From an uncultured Gammaproteobacteria bacterium (GTDB lineage: Bacteria; Patescibacteriota; Patescibacteriia; SBBC01; CAIJZX01): a stretch of 64,000 bases of DNA. Each line of letters begins with the position of its first letter. The stretch's first letter is position 1. Below, piece by piece: positions 2,749 through 21,698 of the stretch. Position numbers and translations under genes: made by a program. Where the stretch lies: the NCBI GenBank assembly GCA_964349465.1, contig CAYGGC010000001.1, positions 124,375 through 188,374 on the forward strand, given 5' to 3'. The notes under the pieces are model-generated. The model saw only the letters and a list, made by a program, of their open reading frames with translations, made no database searches and had not been told where the DNA came from.

Positions 2749-3303
2749 TTAACGGCGAGAGGCCAGTTCTCGTTGGCGGATGATCATTCGTCCTCGGTTG
2801 AGCGCCTCTTTGGCGCTGAGTCCGGGCTTTCTCATCGGCTGAGTGCTCGGCTTGGAGCGGAGGAACTGAACGATAATGAGATCGTCATCTTCGCCGACGC
2901 GGCAGATCGCCCGCCCGTTCTTGATCACGAAGATCGTCGGGTCGGCAGCGTGCATCGCTGACATCAAGTAGACGAGACCGAGATCGGCCTGACTGGTCAA
3001 CCCAATCTCGAACCGTTCAGGTTCGATCCGGTGAAACCGCGGCCGATCGAGGCGCTCGAGGTACTCCCCGAAGCGGGTCAGGGTTTCCCGCCTGACCATG
3101 AACGCTGGCTTGCGCCATTCCGAGTTGATGGTGTTGACTAGGCGTCGACCGGCGGCCGTCATCTGGTCGGTGTGCCAACTCAAGTTGGTCAGGTTGACGA
3201 TCCGAAGGTCGTGGTGATGGACGTGAACCGGCTGACCGGAACTGGAAAGCAGATCATGACTGCAGGTGATGACCAAAGCAAATCCATGTGGATTCGTCGC
3301 CAT
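2749..3303 (-). CDS. Hypothetical His-rich protein of 185 aa. Start moved to the internal ATG, which has a GGAGGA RBS; the ORF track starts at a TTG at 3405.
   Basis: ATG at 3303-3301 is preceded by CACGGAGGAAGC. Contains the PVHVHHHD and SAMHAADP motifs. No confident family assignment. Confidence 0.4.
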   Translation of the reverse strand: MATNPHGFALVITCSHDLLSSSGQPVHVHHHDLRIVNLTNLSWHTDQMTAAGRRLVNTINSEWRKPAFMVRRETLTRFGEYLERLDRPRFHRIEPERFEIGLTSQADLGLVYLMSAMHAADPTIFVIKNGRAICRVGEDDDLIIVQFLRSKPSTQPMRKPGLSAKEALNRGRMIIRQRELASRR

Positions 3304-3410
3304 GCTTCCTCCGTGAAAGGTACACATCGTGGCTACCAGGGAACAGTGAACAACAACTGGCAACAGATGAAGGAGCACGATAGCATTTGACGCGGAAAAA
3401 GTCAAGATCC

Positions 3411-3439
3411 TTGAAGTTTTGCTCTGAAGTTGGTAGAAT
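3411..3439 (+). promoter_or_regulatory. Sigma70-like promoter of glyS: TTGAAG-17-TAGAAT, with the -10 hexamer ending 6 nt before the ATG (leaderless candidate).
   Basis: TTGAAG at 3411-3416 and TAGAAT at 3434-3439; ATG at 3446. Confidence 0.45.
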
Positions 3440-3445
3440 CAGCCC

Positions 3446-5146
3446 ATGTCAAAAGCTTCAGCTGACATGGAAAAAATCGTCAACTTAGCGAAACGCCGCG
3501 GGTTTGTTTTTCCGTCCAGTGAGATATATGGAGGTTTAGCTGGTTTTTGGGATTGGGGACCGCTTGGTGTTCTTCTAAAAAACAATATAAAACGAGAATG
3601 GTGGCGGACTTTTGTCCAAAAAAGGAGCGATATGGTTGGTATTGATGGCACAATAATTTCCGCACCCAAGGTTTGGATGGCAAGCGGGCATGTTGATACC
3701 TTTGCTGATTTTTTAGTTGATTGCCAAAACTGTAAACACAGATTTCGTGGTGATCATTTGATTGAGCAATATACTGAGCAAAGCATTGTAGATTTTGCAA
3801 TTGCTTATCTTAGCGATTGGATTGAGTCAATTAGCGAAAGATATGGTAATGCAATAGTTAAAAAAAAGATTTCTCTTGAAGACTTAAACATTAGGGTTGC
3901 TGAGTCAAGAAAAAATCTTCTCGAATCAGGTATTGATCCTGACGAGGTATTAGAGGAATCAAAAAAGAAAAAGAAATTGATAATAAAAAGTGCCTCTGAT
4001 CGTCAAGAAGACCTTTCTCTTGATGCGGAATTTGAAGCTTGGAAAAGGGTAAAATCAAACATAGGAGAATTTATTAATCATTACATATATTACTCCCAAA
4101 TTCCCTGTCCTTCATGCAAAAAAACTGGTGAGTTTACAAAAGCGAGAAAATTTAATTTAATGTTAAAAACCAATATTGGTCCCGTTGAAGACTCTAGTAG
4201 CACCGGGTATTTGCGTCCTGAAACCGCGCAAAGCATTTTCATTAACTTTGAAAATGTCCGTGAATCAACGAGGAAAAAGCTGCCATTTGGTATCGCCCAG
4301 ATCGGCAAAGCCTTCCGGAATGAAATCACGCCTGGAAATTTTGTGTTCCGCCAACGGGAATTCGAACAAATGGAAATCGAATATTTCGTACGGCCGGGCG
4401 ATGACGACGCGCATTTTTCCACCTGGGTTGAAATGTGTTATCAATGGTTCCTCTCTTTAGGACTGAAAGCCGAGCATCTGCGCAAGTTTGAACAGCCGGC
4501 CAGCGAGTTGGCGCATTACTCGAAAGCCACAACAGATATTGAATTCACCTTTCCAATTGAAAAGGGTTGGGGCGAATTAATGGGGATCGCGAATCGGACT
4601 GATTACGATTTGAAACAGCACGGGCAGCACGCGAAGGGGAGTCCCGAAGCTTTTGCGACGCCGATTGACGACGAAGGGAAAGAGAAAAAAGTCCCGTTTG
4701 TGATTGAGCCGTCGATGGGCGTTGATCGCGCGGCGCTGGCCTTTCTGCTCGATGCGTATACCATCATCGATGGTGGTCGGTCCACGACGACCGAAAGTAT
4801 TAAAGACGAAGAAGTGGTGCTCAAGTTGCACCCGCGTTTAGCGCCATACACCGTGGCGATTTTACCACTCTCAAAAAAGCCGGAGCTAACCGCGATCGCG
4901 GAACCGTTGCTGGCTGAGCTGCGAAAAACGTGGATGGTTGATTATGATCAAACTGGTTCGATTGGGAAGCGCTACCGACGTCAGGACGAAATTGGTACCC
5001 CGCTGTGCGTGACCGTTGATTTCGATACGATCGAAGGTGTGAAGCGCCCAAAGGGAACCGTCACCGTCCGTGATCGCGATACCATGGAACAACATAACGT
5101 CGCTATTGATGAACTTCCGGCCTACGTGGCGGAGCGTCTCCGCTAG
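3446..5146 (+). CDS. glyQS: Glycine--tRNA ligase, dimeric glyQS type.
   Basis: N-terminal MEKIVNLAKRRGFVFPSSEIYGG...WDWGPLG signature, class II motifs, paired CxxC knuckles, C-terminal anticodon-binding domain. The first ~800 bp are markedly AT-rich. Confidence 0.9.
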   Translation: MSKASADMEKIVNLAKRRGFVFPSSEIYGGLAGFWDWGPLGVLLKNNIKREWWRTFVQKRSDMVGIDGTIISAPKVWMASGHVDTFADFLVDCQNCKHRFRGDHLIEQYTEQSIVDFAIAYLSDWIESISERYGNAIVKKKISLEDLNIRVAESRKNLLESGIDPDEVLEESKKKKKLIIKSASDRQEDLSLDAEFEAWKRVKSNIGEFINHYIYYSQIPCPSCKKTGEFTKARKFNLMLKTNIGPVEDSSSTGYLRPETAQSIFINFENVRESTRKKLPFGIAQIGKAFRNEITPGNFVFRQREFEQMEIEYFVRPGDDDAHFSTWVEMCYQWFLSLGLKAEHLRKFEQPASELAHYSKATTDIEFTFPIEKGWGELMGIANRTDYDLKQHGQHAKGSPEAFATPIDDEGKEKKVPFVIEPSMGVDRAALAFLLDAYTIIDGGRSTTTESIKDEEVVLKLHPRLAPYTVAILPLSKKPELTAIAEPLLAELRKTWMVDYDQTGSIGKRYRRQDEIGTPLCVTVDFDTIEGVKRPKGTVTVRDRDTMEQHNVAIDELPAYVAERLR

Positions 5147-6824: not shown

Positions 6825-8437
6825 TGCGACTGCGGCGCCTCGTGCGGTGGTGGTATAAAACGGATTGGGCGATTGGGCTAACAGTATTTCTCATTGCTGT
6901 TATCCCACGGCTCATCCCTAGTGGGATGTTTATGGATCCTGATTCCGCGACCCTCTGGATTGGGCGGACGAGGGGTTTTCTCGAAGCCCTGCAGGGCGGG
7001 GATCCGAACCTCTTCGCGCCGAGTGTCCATCCCGGGGTGCCGCTGATGTGGCTCACGGCGGCGGGACTTGGTTGGTGGAAACTCGTCAGTGGATTTTTTT
7101 CTGGGCCCGACCAACTCGAAGCGTTTACCTGGATGGTAAAAGTGCCGCTGGCGCTGGTGACGAGTGGTCTAGCCGTTGGAGCGTGGCGCTACCTACGTCG
7201 GTGGGCTGCTCGACCCGTGGCGATACTAACGGCCGCGATCTTTGCGCTTGATCCGCTCTACCTTGTTTTTTCTCGGTATCAACATCTCGATGCTCTCGTC
7301 ACTGGTTTTGTGTTTGTTGGGCTCATCGCGACGTGGTCAGGTATTACTCAGCGACGATTCGGTGACCTGGCCGTCGGTTCCGCGCTCCTCGTGCTTGGAA
7401 TACTCACACGACTGAATGGCGGACTCGCGATTGTCGTCGCGGCAATTGGCCTGGCTTTTTTTTGGCCCCGTGGAGGCAAAAGAAAAGCGTGGTTGGTTTT
7501 TTGTCTATCCGGGAGCGTGACCGCCCTGATCGTTTGGCCGGCCATTCTCTTCGGACCGCAGGGGATTATCGATCTCCTCAACAATCGGATCGGCCTCGCG
7601 CTTGTCCCGCATGAAGTCGCGCCGAATGTCGATGTGATCCCGTGGGTTCGGGGCTTGCTGTATCCCTTGTTTATCCTGACTCGTGAATTTCCACTTCTAC
7701 TGGGCTTGGCCGCGGTTGGGGTAGTGAGACTCTGGCGAGGCCGAACCCCGTTCGACCGGTTTGGACAAGGACTAACTATTTTTTCGTTGGCCTATTACGC
7801 GATGCTTCTGGCCTTACCAAAAGACCTCGATCGGTACGCACTTCCACTTATCGGCCCGCTCGCACTATTTTCTGCACAAGGCATGTTGTGGATGTGGTCA
7901 AAACTGCCGACCAGGGTGTTTCGTTCCTTGTTCATTGGCCTGATGATCTTTCAACTCATACTGTTCTATCGGCTCGGTCCGTATTTCCAAACCTACCAGA
8001 ATTTTTTAACGAACCTTGCGCGCCAGACGCCGCTGGGGACCTCGCAGGCGCTTGATCCGGCCTGGGGCGAGGGAATTTCGGAGGCGGTCGCGTATCTCAA
8101 AAACGGTCAGCCTACGCTGCCGCCGACAGCGGCTTGGTTTGCTGGAGTAGCTTGTTATTACGGGAGCGCCCACAAGTCGACAGAGTATCCGTTTGTTGGT
8201 CGAGATCATTTGGCGTGCCCCCCCGGCTTACGTTGGTTAGCGACTCCGCAGGACGCTACCTACCTCATTCTTTCTCGCGATCAAATTGCGCAACGGATAT
8301 ATCCGAAACTCCTTGATGATATCGATCGGCTTGGTTGGCAACCGGAAAAAGTTATTTCGATCAACGGCGTCCCGCATGTGTATATCTATCGTAACCAAGG
8401 AGGTTTGGCTAAGCGGTACAAACTTACCGACCAATAA
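6818..8437 (+). CDS. GT-C fold glycosyltransferase, ArnT/PMT (family 39/83)-like integral membrane protein, paralog 1.
   Basis: Multi-TM N-terminal half with a periplasmic-loop DxD-like region. About 45% identity to the next gene. The start overlaps the upstream stop (ATGGTAG). Confidence 0.6.
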   Translation: MVVRLRRLVRWWYKTDWAIGLTVFLIAVIPRLIPSGMFMDPDSATLWIGRTRGFLEALQGGDPNLFAPSVHPGVPLMWLTAAGLGWWKLVSGFFSGPDQLEAFTWMVKVPLALVTSGLAVGAWRYLRRWAARPVAILTAAIFALDPLYLVFSRYQHLDALVTGFVFVGLIATWSGITQRRFGDLAVGSALLVLGILTRLNGGLAIVVAAIGLAFFWPRGGKRKAWLVFCLSGSVTALIVWPAILFGPQGIIDLLNNRIGLALVPHEVAPNVDVIPWVRGLLYPLFILTREFPLLLGLAAVGVVRLWRGRTPFDRFGQGLTIFSLAYYAMLLALPKDLDRYALPLIGPLALFSAQGMLWMWSKLPTRVFRSLFIGLMIFQLILFYRLGPYFQTYQNFLTNLARQTPLGTSQALDPAWGEGISEAVAYLKNGQPTLPPTAAWFAGVACYYGSAHKSTEYPFVGRDHLACPPGLRWLATPQDATYLILSRDQIAQRIYPKLLDDIDRLGWQPEKVISINGVPHVYIYRNQGGLAKRYKLTDQ

Positions 8438-17902: not shown

Positions 17903-18892
17903 TTATGTTTCAGGAGCGTGACTAATCATTAGGCAGTAGCAGTTCATCAGCGTCTGCCGGAGAAGATCATCGTAGGCGACGCGCCTGATCCAGAGAGCTT
18001 CCTCGTAGTTATTCGTGGTTGCCGGTTCGATCGGTAAAGCTAATATCTGGTCATCGATCAATTGACCGACAGGTTTCCGATTGACGACGAAGTCCAGGTA
18101 GCGTCGATCGTGGGCGTCAGCTTCGCCAATCAAGCGGTAAGTGCTTTCATAGATCGCCAGGGCGAAATTGAGCCATTCAAGTCGTCGTTGTTTTGGCGAC
18201 ATCTCCTTGAAGCGGTCATCGCTCTGGTGGATGAACCTGACCATGTGCCTGACCTTACGCCAGACGCCATTCGGGTCGAGCATTTCTCGCGTTTCGAGAT
18301 GCGGCGCGAGCCCGTACCAGATGATGTTAGCGAACGTAGCGTACCGCCAACGGGGCGTGCGGGGGAGGTTGCGATCGAGTGTCAGCTTAATATCTGAACT
18401 GATCCGCGCGACGTTCAGGTCAACGAGAATTCGCTGGGCCCGCAAGTAGGGGACGAACCGGTCCTGGACAGCGTCATGCAAAATGAACTGCTGACGGGCG
18501 GGTCGTTCTTTTTTCTTCCGCTTGCCGTTCTTCTCCTCGTACTCAATTGGATCGAACTCGTCGTCGATCCGCGTCCTGAGGTGCTTGCGAATTGTCGTGA
18601 GTTGCGCCCGCCAGGCGGATTGGGCGGCCTCGTCATCTTGTGGCGTGATCGGGAATGGCCAGGTTGTACGACATCGCTCTTCCTCCAAGAGCGCAAGGTA
18701 GAGCGTGTTTGCAAACTGATACGGCATGCCGCGACCAAACCCATGTTGATTGGCCGCGCGTCCCCACAGTCGAATTCTGGCTTGCTCAGACATCAGCCCA
18801 ATTCGCAGGGTGGTTTGATGGGACAACTCGAAGCGGGTGGTATGCCGTTGGTTCACATCCAGTGTGGGAATATCTGTCATCTCGATACTCAC
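17903..18892 (-). CDS. Hypothetical 329-aa protein, no family recognised. It is an isolated opposite-strand gene between terminators.
   Basis: GTG start at 18892 with AAGGAGG 5 nt upstream. Basic/KR-rich segment (KNGKRKKKERPARQQ). Flanked by terminators. Confidence 0.6.
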   Translation of the reverse strand: MSIEMTDIPTLDVNQRHTTRFELSHQTTLRIGLMSEQARIRLWGRAANQHGFGRGMPYQFANTLYLALLEEERCRTTWPFPITPQDDEAAQSAWRAQLTTIRKHLRTRIDDEFDPIEYEEKNGKRKKKERPARQQFILHDAVQDRFVPYLRAQRILVDLNVARISSDIKLTLDRNLPRTPRWRYATFANIIWYGLAPHLETREMLDPNGVWRKVRHMVRFIHQSDDRFKEMSPKQRRLEWLNFALAIYESTYRLIGEADAHDRRYLDFVVNRKPVGQLIDDQILALPIEPATTNNYEEALWIRRVAYDDLLRQTLMNCYCLMISHAPET

Positions 18893-19191: not shown

Positions 19192-20253
19192 ATGGACATT
19201 GCTGTCATTGCCCTGATCGTCGTTTTACTGGCCGTTGTAGGCGTGATTTTTTCGCGTCTCTCCAGTACGACGAAAATCCTTCAGGAACTGAAAGATCAGA
19301 AGGGGAATGACCAGGCCTCGATCCTCCTGAATCAAAATATTCAAGGCCTCCAGCAACGCCTCGACTCGCAAAACCAGAATCTCCAGTCGACCCTCCAGAA
19401 GCAATTTGGAGACAGCGCGAAAATTATTCAGGATGTGACCGAGCGCCTAACGAAGCTTGATGAGACGAACCGCCAAGTCGTCGGTTTTGCCGATCAGCTC
19501 AAACGCCTCCAAGATACGCTCAACAACCCGAAACAGCGCGGCGTCCTCGGTGAATATTACCTTGAGACGGTATTAAAAAATGTTCTGCCACCGAAGAACT
19601 ATAAACTCCAGTACAAATTTAAGGACGGAGAAATTGTCGATGCGGCGATTTTCATCCAAGATAAAATTATTCCGGTCGACGCGAAATTTTCCCTCGAAAA
19701 TTATAACCGCTTAGCGGAACTGACAACCGAATCGGATCGTGAACGGGTCGAAAAAGTCTTTAAGCAGGATTTAAAGAATCGCATCGACGAAACCTCGAAG
19801 TATATTCGGCCGGGTGAGAATACGATGGACTTTGCGTTCATGTTCATTCCGGCGGAAGGGATTTATTACGATTTGCTCGTCAATAAAGTTGGCGCGGCTG
19901 GCGTTTCGTCCCGTGACCTGATCGATTACGCCTTTAAGGAAAAGCACGTCATCATTGTTTCGCCGACGTCGTTCTTCGCGTATTTGCAAACAGTGCTGCA
20001 AGGCTTACGCGCAATGCAAATCGAAGAAGGGGCGAAAGAGATTCGGAAGAACGTTGAGGTTCTGGCCAAGCATCTACAATCTTATCAAGGTTATATGGAT
20101 AAGCTTGGCAACTCTCTGAATACGTCGATGAATCACTATGGCGCCGCCCAAAAAGCCTTTGAGCGGATTGATAAAGATGTCTTAAAGATTGCCGAGGCAG
20201 AAGTATCCGAATCAAAGCTGATTGAAAACAACATGGAAAATGAGCGATCCTAA
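19192..20253 (+). CDS. rmuC: DNA recombination protein RmuC.
   Basis: N-terminal TM segment, a long coiled-coil and a conserved C-terminal RmuC domain. Confidence 0.85.
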   Translation: MDIAVIALIVVLLAVVGVIFSRLSSTTKILQELKDQKGNDQASILLNQNIQGLQQRLDSQNQNLQSTLQKQFGDSAKIIQDVTERLTKLDETNRQVVGFADQLKRLQDTLNNPKQRGVLGEYYLETVLKNVLPPKNYKLQYKFKDGEIVDAAIFIQDKIIPVDAKFSLENYNRLAELTTESDRERVEKVFKQDLKNRIDETSKYIRPGENTMDFAFMFIPAEGIYYDLLVNKVGAAGVSSRDLIDYAFKEKHVIIVSPTSFFAYLQTVLQGLRAMQIEEGAKEIRKNVEVLAKHLQSYQGYMDKLGNSLNTSMNHYGAAQKAFERIDKDVLKIAEAEVSESKLIENNMENERS

Positions 20254-20419
20254 GAAAAACGAGAGCCATGAAGAGGAGTTATTAACTGGTATTTCGTCTG
20301 CAGAATTTGAGATACAAATTAAAAAACTTGGAGAAGAGGCAAAGAAGAACCCAATATTAAAATCGCTAGGTACGGCATCAACGGAAATTCTTGAAGAAGT
20401 CCGGGAAAAGGATGAGTAA
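20240..20419 (+). CDS. Small acidic protein of 59 aa (65 aa from the 20222 ATG). It overlaps the rmuC end and the PIN-gene start. Candidate antitoxin-like partner.
   Basis: An intact ORF in 36% GC DNA with a 29-nt overlap onto the downstream PIN gene. No recognisable DNA-binding motif. Confidence 0.3.
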   Translation: MSDPKKNESHEEELLTGISSAEFEIQIKKLGEEAKKNPILKSLGTASTEILEEVREKDE

Positions 20420-20972
20420 CCTGCCATCATTAATCCTTTTAGATACGATGGCTGCGGCAGGAATTTTTTCTGATAGGCAAGAAAAACAAAAAAAGTGGGT
20501 GTCTACCATTCTACATTTGATCGCTTTTCTACCAGAAGCAGACATTACCATCCCCACACCTGTTTTTTTGGAGTTAGCGCAGTGGCATGTCAACTGGTAC
20601 AAATACGTTCAGAATATCAACCAGCCGAGTATCTCTAGCAGTCCGTTACTTAAGTACGTAAGCTATAGTATTCCTAAAAAAGTATTTTATCCGGCTGCCG
20701 CCTATAAACTTTTTTGTTCAAATAAGCAAAATAAGCCAGATGAATTTCGTAAAGAAAAGAATAAGATATCATTTATTGATTCTCTTTTAGCTTCATATTG
20801 TCTAACGTATAATTACGCTCTAGTAACGGAGAATCATAATGATTTTCCGGACAAATATTTTAGTATCGTTAAAGTTGCGACCTCTCCTGAATCAACCGGC
20901 ACAGAAAGGCGTCTACTCTTTTTGTTAAAACCTAATACCGAGGCATGGAGAAACGATTTATCAAGGATATAA
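20391..20972 (+). CDS. PIN-domain protein (VapC-like) with a ~60-aa insertion, in an AT-rich island.
   Basis: LILLDTMAA (Asp1), VFLELAQ (Glu), IDSLLASYCL (Asp3) and LVTENHNDF (Asp4). About 36% GC versus ~55% in the flanks. Confidence 0.65.
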   Translation: MKKSGKRMSNLPSLILLDTMAAAGIFSDRQEKQKKWVSTILHLIAFLPEADITIPTPVFLELAQWHVNWYKYVQNINQPSISSSPLLKYVSYSIPKKVFYPAAAYKLFCSNKQNKPDEFRKEKNKISFIDSLLASYCLTYNYALVTENHNDFPDKYFSIVKVATSPESTGTERRLLFLLKPNTEAWRNDLSRI

Positions 20973-20983
20973 CTTCGGAAAAC

Positions 20984-21014
20984 AAAAGCCGGTGTTGCGC
21001 AACACCGGCTTTGT
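20984..21014 (+). terminator. Rho-independent terminator after the PIN gene.
   Basis: GCCGGTGTTGCGCAACACCGGC followed by TTTGTG. Confidence 0.6.
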
Positions 21015-21374
21015 GAGAGGGCGCTTCGTTTGCCCGACCCTTGGAGCGACTCAACCCTGATCTTCAACAGCTCTGTATTTACTCGTCGTTCCTCCGGCGC
21101 GTGTGACTAAAAGTCTTTTCTCGTTTCGGCCCATCGTTTCCCCATGTAGTCCTGACGGAGTTGAAGTTGGCTTTTTTGCCAGCTCTCTTCGTGGTTTGGC
21201 GCCAAACCGTTCTACTTCGGTACTGCGATTGGCGACAGTGTAGCATAGGGTTTTATTGTTGAATAGTTTACATAAGTGTCAGGTGGAAACTGGTCGCGCA
21301 TTCGCTAACCTTAGCCAAAAAGTTTTACAACCCTTGCGTAAGTCGCCGGAAAGTAGTAGACTCGTGGCGCCTTT

Positions 21375-21698
21375 TTGGCTATGACTAGCGAAAATCCATT
21401 ACAAAATAGCGGTGACGGTGGCCCTTCGGCAGGCTCAGGGCGCCCTCTGTGGACGGCCCTCAACCTTGCCTGGGAGCTCGGGTATACTATTGTTATCCCG
21501 TTAGTCCTCTTCGCCCTCGCAGGCCGGTTCGCCGATAAACAGTTCGGCACGTCGCCCTGGCTGCTCCTGGCTGGGATGGCCCTCGCGATTACGGTAACGA
21601 CGATTGCGCTGGTCCGTAAGTTCTCGAAATTGATTAACGATATGAATAAAGAGATTCCGGCTCAAGGCCGGAATGACAAGAACCCTGATGGCCGCTGA
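21375..21698 (+). CDS. atpZ: AtpZ/AtpI-like small membrane protein, first gene of the ATP synthase operon.
   Basis: Two TM helices with FADKQFGTSPWLLLAGMALAI matching the AtpZ (ATPase_gene1) consensus. Confidence 0.6.
   Translation: MAMTSENPLQNSGDGGPSAGSGRPLWTALNLAWELGYTIVIPLVLFALAGRFADKQFGTSPWLLLAGMALAITVTTIALVRKFSKLINDMNKEIPAQGRNDKNPDGR

Follow-up and report, generated by a model that had tools for sequence, protein, structure and literature searches.

A divergent VapC-like PIN-domain gene and a small partner gene form an AT-rich cassette separating rmuC from the atp operon in a Patescibacteria genome

Introduction

A 64,000-nt stretch of DNA (the window) from a Kerfeldbacteria-like Patescibacteria genome carries two short open reading frames (ORFs) in an AT-rich block behind rmuC. 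The locus raises the question of what these ORFs encode and how they came to lie there. The original prediction, made from the letters of the DNA, read them as a PIN-domain protein and a small upstream ORF, i.e., as a toxin-antitoxin pair or small defence cassette of foreign origin. Among toxin-antitoxin systems, PIN/VapC modules are the most common type; therefore, another one would be unsurprising in itself. We propose that the cassette is a toxin-antitoxin module resembling VapBC, with a minimal antitoxin of atypical kind, horizontally acquired into the interval from rmuC to the atp operon (the rmuC-atp slot), and we assign this reading a probability of roughly 0.6. The features of the locus are listed in Table 1.

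Table 1. Positions of the features discussed, in window coordinates.
Feature	Position	Strand	Description
rmuC	19192..20253	+	353 aa; Pfam RmuC E = 1.9e-52; conserved host gene, left border of insertion
AT-rich block, probably foreign	20203..20984		37.3% GC; holds the two-gene cassette
Small partner gene	20240..20419	+	59 aa, pI 4.76; start ATG 20240; putative antitoxin or inhibitor
Divergent VapC-like PIN-domain protein gene	20412..20972	+	186 aa, pI 9.1; putative endoribonuclease toxin
Perfect 28-nt palindrome (AAAGCCGGTGTTGC/GCAACACCGGCTTT)	20985..21012		12 nt downstream of the PIN stop codon; marks where the AT-rich block ends on the right
Rest of variable segment	21013..21299		GC 50.9%; no convincing gene, no homology to relatives

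An AT-rich block replaces the 3' end of rmuC

The window has a GC content of 52.5% (standard deviation of 3.9% over 733-bp windows), and the two-gene span (20240-20972) has a GC content of 37.4%, which places it among the 0.5% of 733-bp windows with the lowest GC in the 64 kb. Only one other region in the window is equally low, and it lies within a glycyl-tRNA synthetase gene. The small ORF and the PIN-like ORF showed GC contents of 38.3% and 36.9%, respectively; GC3 was 0.35 in both, compared with 0.57-0.70 in the neighbouring genes. A drop from about 55% to about 36% GC had been predicted. The low-GC block was indeed found, whereas the 55% baseline was too high for both rmuC (47.3%) and the window.

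The drop had also been placed exactly at the rmuC stop codon. In fact, its onset lies 51 nt earlier, at position 20203, and the DNA homology to the closest relative (L002) ends there as well; this homology runs to 20202, inside rmuC, and returns at 21300, ahead of the atp operon. Within 20203-20984, neither L002 nor L003 nor L012 showed DNA homology. The last 16 codons and the stop of rmuC (20203-20253, 37% GC) derive from the AT-rich block and not from the ancestral gene, and the C-terminal tail of RmuC reads VSESKLIENNMENERS here vs TTIEPMVLEKPTTE-type tails in relatives. The insertion borders were searched for target-site duplications and terminal inverted repeats, which revealed nothing convincing; Rfam gave no match over 20100-21450, and no nearby tRNA was found.

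For comparison of the rmuC 3' flank in relatives, 580 related stretches were identified in genome contigs, and the best 80 (55-77% identity), whose titles were mostly those of Patescibacteria-group MAGs, were taken as loci. The cassette was absent from all of these best 80 of 580 loci of other genomes, and the sole carrier among 81 rmuC loci was L001, an independent assembly of the same locus. The cassette is thus not uniformly present, and this absence, together with the homology break at 20202-21300 and the GC3 contrast, upholds the predicted horizontal acquisition. Sequence comparison therefore supports the block at 20203-20984 as a horizontally acquired two-gene module. The locus is a clean, base-resolved case of a foreign cassette set into a conserved gene at its 3' end, in a reduced genome, with the RmuC C-terminus rewritten.

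Across these genomes, the content of the rmuC-atp slot varies. In the same slot, L003 carries a pair of 84 aa and 104 aa, which was considered as RelE/ParE-like and rejected for want of Pfam support.

We considered a functional tie of the cassette to RmuC in the manner of Shield, in which an RmuC-domain nuclease is accompanied by downstream accessory or regulatory genes. The small ORF starts within the last rmuC codons, overlapping the 3' end by 14 nt, and no promoter was predicted between them. In Shield, small accessory genes likewise stand downstream of shdA, an RmuC-family gene (PMC10270631). However, RmuC here is of the conserved, syntenic housekeeping type, and no homologous cassette with a readable upstream flank adjoins rmuC, in addition to the 80 rmuC loci without a cassette. 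PADLOC gave no Shield match, its best match being a weak RmuC-domain DRT model, and a ShdA-type RmuC forming a unit with dedicated accessories was thus not found. Moreover, Shield is reported only from Pseudomonas, and an accessory of it that has been characterised, ShdB, is peptidase-like, in contrast to the predicted PIN nuclease of the cassette (PMC10270631). A tie to RmuC is largely refuted by the distribution of the cassette, and we regard it as very improbable. The suggestion that RmuC-adjacent cargo marks a known hotspot likewise found no backing, with homologous cassettes elsewhere never standing beside rmuC.

The second gene of the cassette codes for a highly divergent PIN-like protein

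The downstream ORF had been read as 193 aa from a TTG at 20391. The ATG at 20412, which was chosen by the gene callers and fits the N-termini of the homologues, is the better start and yields 186 aa. A word-indexed single-sequence protein search returned only the PIN-like protein itself, and an exhaustive phmmer search was required to reach the family, i.e., full-length homologues at 26-43% identity with conserved motifs. Three long repetitive phmmer matches (P0026, P0033, and P0036) aligned only in several short repeated stretches and were excluded; P0026 and P0036 are repeat proteins. The annotated homologues are named at most 'hypothetical' or 'predicted nucleic acid-binding protein', and the family is named so far only from Patescibacteria. 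We found no paper joining Patescibacteria, toxin-antitoxin, and VapC, and a literature search on the candidate phyla radiation, toxin-antitoxin, and PIN domain found only tangential papers. The cassette family is most likely rare and uncatalogued.

All four predicted PIN acidic positions were confirmed as family-conserved, namely D11 (LLDT), E54 (FLEL), D123 (IDSLLA), and D144 (NHNDF). Across 51 family sequences, E54, D123, T139, and N141 were invariant and D144 was kept in at least 90%; Y129 and R166 were also invariant in the family. HMM alignments placed the family motifs LLDT and vDaiiAaY...TeNqkDF over the VapC motifs LFDTN and DAII...TRNtkDF. D11, E54, D123, and D144 are the predicted catalytic residues, and they would supply the acidic active site of the VapC-like group (PMC5499597), which comprises an Asp after S1, a Glu on the helical insert H2', and another two Asp/Glu residues.

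In the HMM search that had been suggested, a PIN match was obtained; it was weak (PF01850, 18.5 bits, E = 0.0033, residues 113-147 covered) and did not reach the curated cut-off of 23.6 bits. NCBIfam VapC models scored 12-14 bits on the window protein against cut-offs of 80-140. Among the family members, weak matches to Pfam PIN were observed in 15 of 31 (best member E = 2.2e-5), and two NCBIfam VapC models matched 15 and 9 of 51 members, respectively, all far under the cut-offs. PIN/VapC models were the only ones for which weak matches recurred across the family. Weak matches to DUF5615 (5/31) and DUF4411 (2/31) were not significant (E of at least 0.015); both belong to the PIN-like clan.

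AlphaFold yielded no usable fold from the single sequence (pLDDT 36). AlphaFold2 on the 51-sequence alignment gave a pLDDT of 92.0 and a pTM of 0.88, with five beta-strands and flanking helices, and the predicted structure thus has the Rossmann-like alpha/beta/alpha sandwich, with a five-stranded parallel sheet at its centre, that characterises the group (PMC5499597). In the PDB, Foldseek matches were weak (best E = 0.043), with PIN proteins over-represented among them, and a search against viral structures gave nothing meaningful. The single insertion of about 60 aa that had been proposed did not appear in the model; instead, the model distributes the extra length among two loops (69-88 and 103-120) and a beta-hairpin and helix at the C-terminus (150-183). 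The canonical core leaves out approximately 50 residues, among them the C-terminal extension, which bears an invariant Arg. PADLOC and PHROGs gave no significant match for the PIN-like protein or its small partner, and viral contigs contained no relative. Motifs and model together indicate that the 186-aa protein is a strongly diverged VapC-like PIN-domain protein. It could also be a non-toxic accessory nuclease of RNA processing or RNA decay (Fcf1, Nob1, or YacL type) with a small regulatory or chaperone subunit, which we consider improbable.

A small partner gene is paired with the PIN-like gene at all family loci examined

The upstream ORF had been described as an acidic ORF of 59 or 65 aa overlapping the PIN-like gene by 29 nt. 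It is acidic and 59 aa long, as described, and the overlap, counted from the ATG of the PIN-like gene, is 8 nt (ATGAGTAA) and not 29. The 59-aa gene was also called on the independent assembly. The encoded protein consists of a K/E-rich N-terminal tail followed by a G-x-S-x-x-E-F segment.

A homologous same-strand ORF of 48-66 aa lies directly upstream of the PIN gene at all 17 distinct family loci examined, with its stop located -10 to +14 nt from the PIN start; the two genes overlap by 4-14 nt at 12 of the 17. Therefore, the type II toxin-antitoxin-like organisation that had been proposed holds across the family, and the gene order is that of VapBC, i.e., a small upstream gene, co-oriented and overlapping or abutting. 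The overlap indicates that the two genes are translationally coupled. The neighbours are different at every locus (smpB, a glycosyltransferase gene, IF2/S15, FeS-assembly/rpiB, L18-S5-L15, and 23S-5S rRNA genes), and at each locus examined the cassette had a higher AT content than its host. These varied neighbours and the foreign composition, together with the absence from the best 80 of 580 rmuC loci, represent the patchy distribution of a mobile module.

A profile built from seven partners of the closer homologues, which excluded the window's own sequence, ranked the window ORF first of 1245 six-frame ORFs (E = 5.6e-6). With a profile from distant-clade partners only, the window ORF ranked second and was not significant (E = 1.1). 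The database profile search returned only 14 proteins, none of which is annotated. Most of them lie on contigs whose size matches that of a PIN-family locus or member; P0065-P0067 have no such counterpart.

None of the 17 partners matched a DNA-binding or antitoxin family (RHH, AbrB, Phd, HTH) in Pfam. Against PDB sequences, the partner profile found designed helical proteins and coiled coils only and no antitoxin; the G-x-S-x-x-E-F segment matched designed helical proteins only. The partner protein is short and helical and carries a charged tail at its N-terminus. As judged from these sequence searches, it represents a new small-protein family that has no recognisable DNA-binding domain and is strictly co-conserved with the nuclease, although its Lys-rich tail may have a cryptic DNA-binding role. 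The partner pI ranges from 4.25 to 10.07 and is basic in 6 of the 15 partners with a computed pI, indicating that acidity is not conserved. In the usual toxin-antitoxin picture, an acidic antitoxin is combined with a basic toxin, and the variable charge is a mismatch with this picture.

Annotation of the homologues goes no further than 'hypothetical' or 'predicted nucleic acid-binding protein', as would be expected if the ORFs were chance frames in an AT-rich intergenic remnant. This explanation is refuted by conservation, and its probability is negligible: full-length homologues keep the motifs at the identities given above, the alignment yields a confident fold, conservation extends to the partner ORF, and independent gene calls agree.

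The cassette resembles VapBC modules with an atypical partner

We propose the following mechanism. An AT-rich two-gene module would have landed in the variable rmuC-atp slot. Its downstream gene would encode a VapC-like metal-dependent endoribonuclease with D11, E54, D123, and D144 as catalytic residues, and the 59-aa partner would bind the nuclease and block its active-site groove. If the partner were lost or degraded, the freed nuclease would cut cellular RNA, e.g., tRNA or rRNA, and translation would be arrested. For the pair, we infer that the PIN-like protein is an active and toxic nuclease, that the partner neutralises it, and that its target is an RNA. Autoregulation, if any, must work differently from that of VapB because the partner has no recognisable DNA-binding domain.

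The closest known systems are the type II VapBC modules (PF01850), such as M. tuberculosis VapC26 (5x3t), K. pneumoniae VapC (7by2), C. crescentus VapC1 (5k8j), and FitB (2bsq). The published family features include an antitoxin gene that lies upstream and overlaps, and a VapC-like group whose catalytic Glu is on the helical insert H2' (PMC5499597). Compared with VapC (~130 aa), the window protein is longer, with 186 aa, two long loops, and the C-terminal beta-hairpin and helix with the invariant Arg. It scores under the Pfam cut-off, and all members score far under the NCBIfam cut-offs. Unlike the antitoxins of VapBC, the partner has 48-66 aa, a variable charge, and no RHH, AbrB, Phd, or HTH domain. 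The sub-threshold models, the ~50 extra residues, the partner without a DNA-binding domain, and the null PADLOC and PHROGs results count against a VapBC-type reading.

VapC-like PIN clusters without canonical antitoxins have been described, e.g., PIN.4 (with DUF4325 as its coupled family) and PIN_12 to PIN_19 (Matelska et al. 2017, PMC5499597). Similar to these clusters, the present family is small, divergent, defined by remote homology, placed in the VapC-like structural group, and accompanied by non-standard neighbour genes (PMC5499597). However, the methods used here matched it to none of them, and its partner family has no Pfam match. The few weak, non-significant member matches also recall the Mut7-C/DUF5615 + DUF433 and DUF4411 PIN-like pairs; in contrast to Mut7-C/DUF5615, the structural neighbours here are VapC toxins and not Mut7-C, and the partner is not DUF433.

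PIN/VapC-type modules are also used in defence. The cassette might act as an anti-phage system of the abortive-infection type, with the PIN nuclease as effector and the small protein as a sensor or inhibitor that infection sets free, rather than a classical labile antitoxin serving addiction or stress responses. The sporadic mobile distribution, the AT-rich composition, and the insertion in a variable slot would suit such a role, as would a partner without a DNA-binding domain, which is hence not a typical autoregulating antitoxin. However, no PADLOC model matches either protein, the homologue neighbourhoods are housekeeping genes and not defence islands, and the viral contig and viral structure sets contained no relatives that would suggest an arms race. 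We regard a defence function as unlikely, though still credible. The defence and toxin-antitoxin readings overlap mechanistically, and computation cannot separate the two.

Returning to the VapBC-like module, a bolder version, which we hold only tentatively, is a conflict or toxin-antitoxin module named only from Patescibacteria, in which a VapC-like nuclease with an additional Arg-bearing element at its C-terminus is curbed by a partner of ~40 structured residues without a DNA-binding domain. If so, operon control and nuclease release would be unlike VapBC autoregulation; release might depend on stoichiometry or translational coupling alone, or on a host- or phage-derived trigger. The hosts are presumably episymbiotic bacteria with genomes of ~1 Mb, and the module might then have a role in symbiont-host or phage conflict beyond plasmid-style addiction. 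The putative minimal inhibitor-nuclease pair deserves structural attention. As the family was recognisable only through exhaustive HMM search and alignment-based structure prediction, it also points to an annotation gap in candidate-phyla-radiation genomes.

A strong hairpin follows the PIN-like gene

A clean terminator had been predicted at 20984-21014. The hairpin was confirmed as the palindrome at 20985-21012, which occurs once in the window and folds at -26.5 kcal/mol including flanks. It is not a textbook intrinsic terminator of the + strand because only UUUGUG follows it on that strand, and the T-run was detected on the minus strand. The palindrome is likely a transcription-stop hairpin.

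Gene organization of the AT-rich cassette

The AT-rich unit 3' of rmuC (hereafter, the cassette) comprises a small partner gene and a PIN-like gene. A 193-aa PIN ORF overlapping the small ORF by 29 nt had originally been predicted. This ORF is readable from the TTG codon, but ATG 20412 is the better start because the proteins called on a separate assembly from this organism are 59 aa and 186 aa long, and homologues in the family alignment begin 4–9 codons ahead of the LLDT motif. This start leaves an 8-nt overlap with the small ORF (ATGAGTAA). The small ORF itself starts 14 nt within rmuC. In L086, L087 and L088, which carry cassette homologues, the automatically called PIN start is an internal Met just past the catalytic LLDT; the true ATG lies 7–8 codons before LLDT, i.e., 11–12 codons upstream of the called start, in the final codons of the partner ORF. 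Such calls hid the partner overlap and cut off the first acidic residue at several loci.

Features in and around the cassette (window coordinates)
Feature	Position	Strand	GC (%)	GC3	Remarks
566-aa ORF	3446-5146	+			putative glycyl-tRNA synthetase
329-aa ORF	17903-18892	-	55		divergent from rmuC
rmuC	19192-20253	+			Pfam RmuC E = 1.9e-52
rmuC, homologous part			47.3	0.57	
AT-rich block	20203-20984		37.3	0.35	GC3 for both genes
Small partner ORF, 59 aa	20240-20419	+			ATG start; same strand as rmuC, 3' of rmuC
PIN-like ORF	from TTG 20391 (193 aa) or ATG 20412 (186 aa)	+			two possible starts
Perfect 28-nt palindrome	20985-21012				single copy in window
22-nt inverted repeat	21301-21322 / 21371-21392				86% complementary, arms 48 nt apart
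atp leader gene (ATPase_gene1)	21375-21698				
GIY-YIG gene, 86 aa	21717-21977	+	39.8	0.38	Pfam E = 8.5e-16
atpB			50.7	0.70	
Whole window			52.5		

The 186-aa protein as a diverged VapC-like PIN protein

An HMM search of the 186-aa protein gave weak PIN and VapC matches. The Pfam PIN match (18.5 bits, E = 0.0033; residues 113-147 only) missed the cut-off of 23.6 bits, and the NCBIfam VapC models scored 12–14 bits. PADLOC and PHROGs returned nothing significant for the protein, and a word-indexed search of 5.8 billion proteins recovered only itself. When 1.84 billion representatives were searched exhaustively with phmmer, 37 hits were obtained; removal of three repetitive artefacts and three fragments left 31 members including the query (160–201 aa; 26–43% identity to the query). 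E54, D123, Y129, T139, N141 and R166 are invariant in the family alignment, D144 is kept in at least 90% of the sequences, and the LLDT Asp is present in all sequences with a complete N-terminus. Among the weak matches of family members, PIN/VapC models alone recurred. A profile search of PDB sequences with the family retrieved VapC toxins only, with the LLDT and vDaiiAaY...TeNqkDF motifs aligned onto the matching VapC catalytic motifs. The four acidic PIN positions had been predicted correctly. The AlphaFold2 model, built with a 51-sequence alignment (pLDDT 92.0; pTM 0.88), showed five strands, the expected helices, and a C-terminal beta-hairpin and helix, with less confident loops at 69-88 and 103-120; a supposed single insertion of ~60 aa proved to be several additions. 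Judged from the alignments and the predicted structure, the 186-aa protein is a genuine, though highly divergent, VapC-like PIN protein whose D-E-D-D site is intact.

A conserved small partner upstream of the PIN gene

Exact-protein look-ups and a metagenome scan provided 17 distinct family loci (the window and 16 others). A same-strand ORF of 48–66 aa lies immediately upstream of the PIN gene in all 17, with its stop −10 to +14 nt from the most probable PIN start, and the two genes overlap by 4–14 nt in 12 loci, which bears out the proposed toxin-antitoxin-like organization. The partners share a charged tail followed by G-x-(S/T)-x-x-E-(F/L) and a second conserved stretch. Using a profile of seven closer-clade partners that excluded the window sequence, the small ORF of the window ranked first among 1245 six-frame ORFs (E = 5.6e-6); its match to a profile dominated by distant-clade partners was not significant. 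Searched against the database, the partner profile retrieved only 14 proteins, all unannotated, most of them on contigs matching PIN-family loci or members in size. Partner acidity is not conserved (pI 4.25–10.07), and the PIN protein is basic (pI 8.8–9.2 in the five loci for which it was computed).

In operon layout the cassette conforms to PIN toxin-antitoxin systems, and in structure to the VapC-like group, as both are defined in PMC5499597, with one exception. VapB-type antitoxins have a defining N-terminal DNA-binding domain, whereas the partners matched no antitoxin or DNA-binding family in Pfam; among PDB sequences, they matched designed helical proteins only. The PIN protein would be an endoribonuclease, with RNA as its presumed target, and the upstream, translationally coupled small protein would most likely bind and inhibit it, thereby neutralizing its putative toxicity. 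A defence or abortive-infection module is a rival reading that overlaps mechanistically with the toxin-antitoxin one.

Insertion between rmuC and the atp operon

The host belongs to the candidate phyla radiation (Patescibacteria), and its top rmuC matches were Candidatus Kerfeldbacteria MAGs (77% and 70% protein identity). DNA homology with the closest related locus (L002) extended up to 20202 and resumed from 21300, a short distance 5' of the atp operon; therefore, the variable segment is 20203-21299. The final 16 rmuC codons (VSESKLIENNMENERS) are part of the inserted block, and relatives have a TTIEPMVLEKPTTE-type tail instead. No flanking direct or inverted repeats were found at the insertion borders. 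The 22-nt inverted repeat, which starts where L002 homology returns and extends into the atp leader gene start, may form a stem-loop in the atp operon leader.

The content of the rmuC-to-atp slot varies between genomes: L012 has nothing there; L003 has DUF3467 and two small ORFs of unknown kind; L002 has a NUDIX protein along with two unknown proteins; and L009, L032, L044 and L064 have membrane or other proteins. In L003, a related Kerfeldbacteria MAG, the two small ORFs (7426-7994) encode 84 aa with an acidic C-terminus and 104 aa; position 7680 is both the end of the first and the start of the second, a one-base overlap. They lie behind the DUF3467 protein in an order like that of another two-gene module; neither matched Pfam.

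Among 81 loci, i.e., the independent assembly of the window's own locus and 80 rmuC loci of other genomes (the best 80 of 580 related stretches), relatives of either cassette protein occurred in the former only. A functional tie to RmuC, of the Shield type as described in PMC10270631, is essentially excluded because the cassette never adjoins rmuC elsewhere, either in homologous loci with readable upstream flanks or in related rmuC loci.

Ranked by GC, the cassette falls within the bottom 0.5% of 733-bp windows across the 64-kb sequence. The originally assumed baseline of ~55% was too high for rmuC, and the drop, placed exactly at the rmuC stop, begins 51 nt earlier. The only other stretch as AT-rich lies within the 566-aa ORF (GC minimum at ~3200-4650), a putative glycyl-tRNA synthetase when read by eye; its Lys/Glu-rich segment (…EESKKKKKLIIKSASDRQEDLS…) may be a lineage-specific insertion. 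The palindrome with its flanks has a folding energy of −26.5 kcal/mol; on the plus strand, nothing more than UUUGUG follows it, and a consensus scan assigned the T-run to the minus strand. The region around the cassette has no Rfam match and no tRNA.

Distribution of the family and neighbouring genes

Where present, the source names of family members indicate Patescibacteria (Shapirobacteria, "Patescibacteria group"). Cassette neighbours differ at every locus (smpB; a glycosyltransferase; IF2/S15; FeS-assembly/rpiB; L18-S5-L15 ribosomal genes). At one locus, L103 (418-4570; from a 960-kb contig, GCA_040960315.1), the cassette homologue lies directly 3' of bacterial 23S and 5S rRNA genes; its partner ORF was missed by the gene caller but is seen when all six frames are translated, and the sister assembly L104 has it as a called gene. 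At every locus examined, cassette GC was 2 to 15 points below that of the surrounding DNA. No relatives were found among viral contigs and viral structures.

A non-toxic accessory RNA-processing enzyme is disfavoured because the cassette is rare, patchy and foreign in composition. That composition, the homology break at 20202/21300 and the absence from related rmuC loci uphold horizontal acquisition, and a horizontally acquired VapBC-like two-gene module is the best-supported reading of the cassette. The original prediction was thus confirmed as an observation, with numerical corrections, and supported as an interpretation apart from the remark that RmuC-adjacent cargo is a known hotspot, its sole interpretive claim without support. 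The PIN proteins form an uncatalogued VapC-like family, so far named from Patescibacteria only, with a new minimal partner family.

The GIY-YIG gene lies between the atp leader gene and atpB, which directly abut in L002 and L003, and its GC3 is well below that of atpB; it has the appearance of another foreign insertion, independent of the PIN cassette and <1 kb from it. The 329-aa ORF, which had no Pfam or PADLOC match and no tblastn match in the 81 loci, may be a further lineage-specific gene, flanking rmuC on its opposite side.
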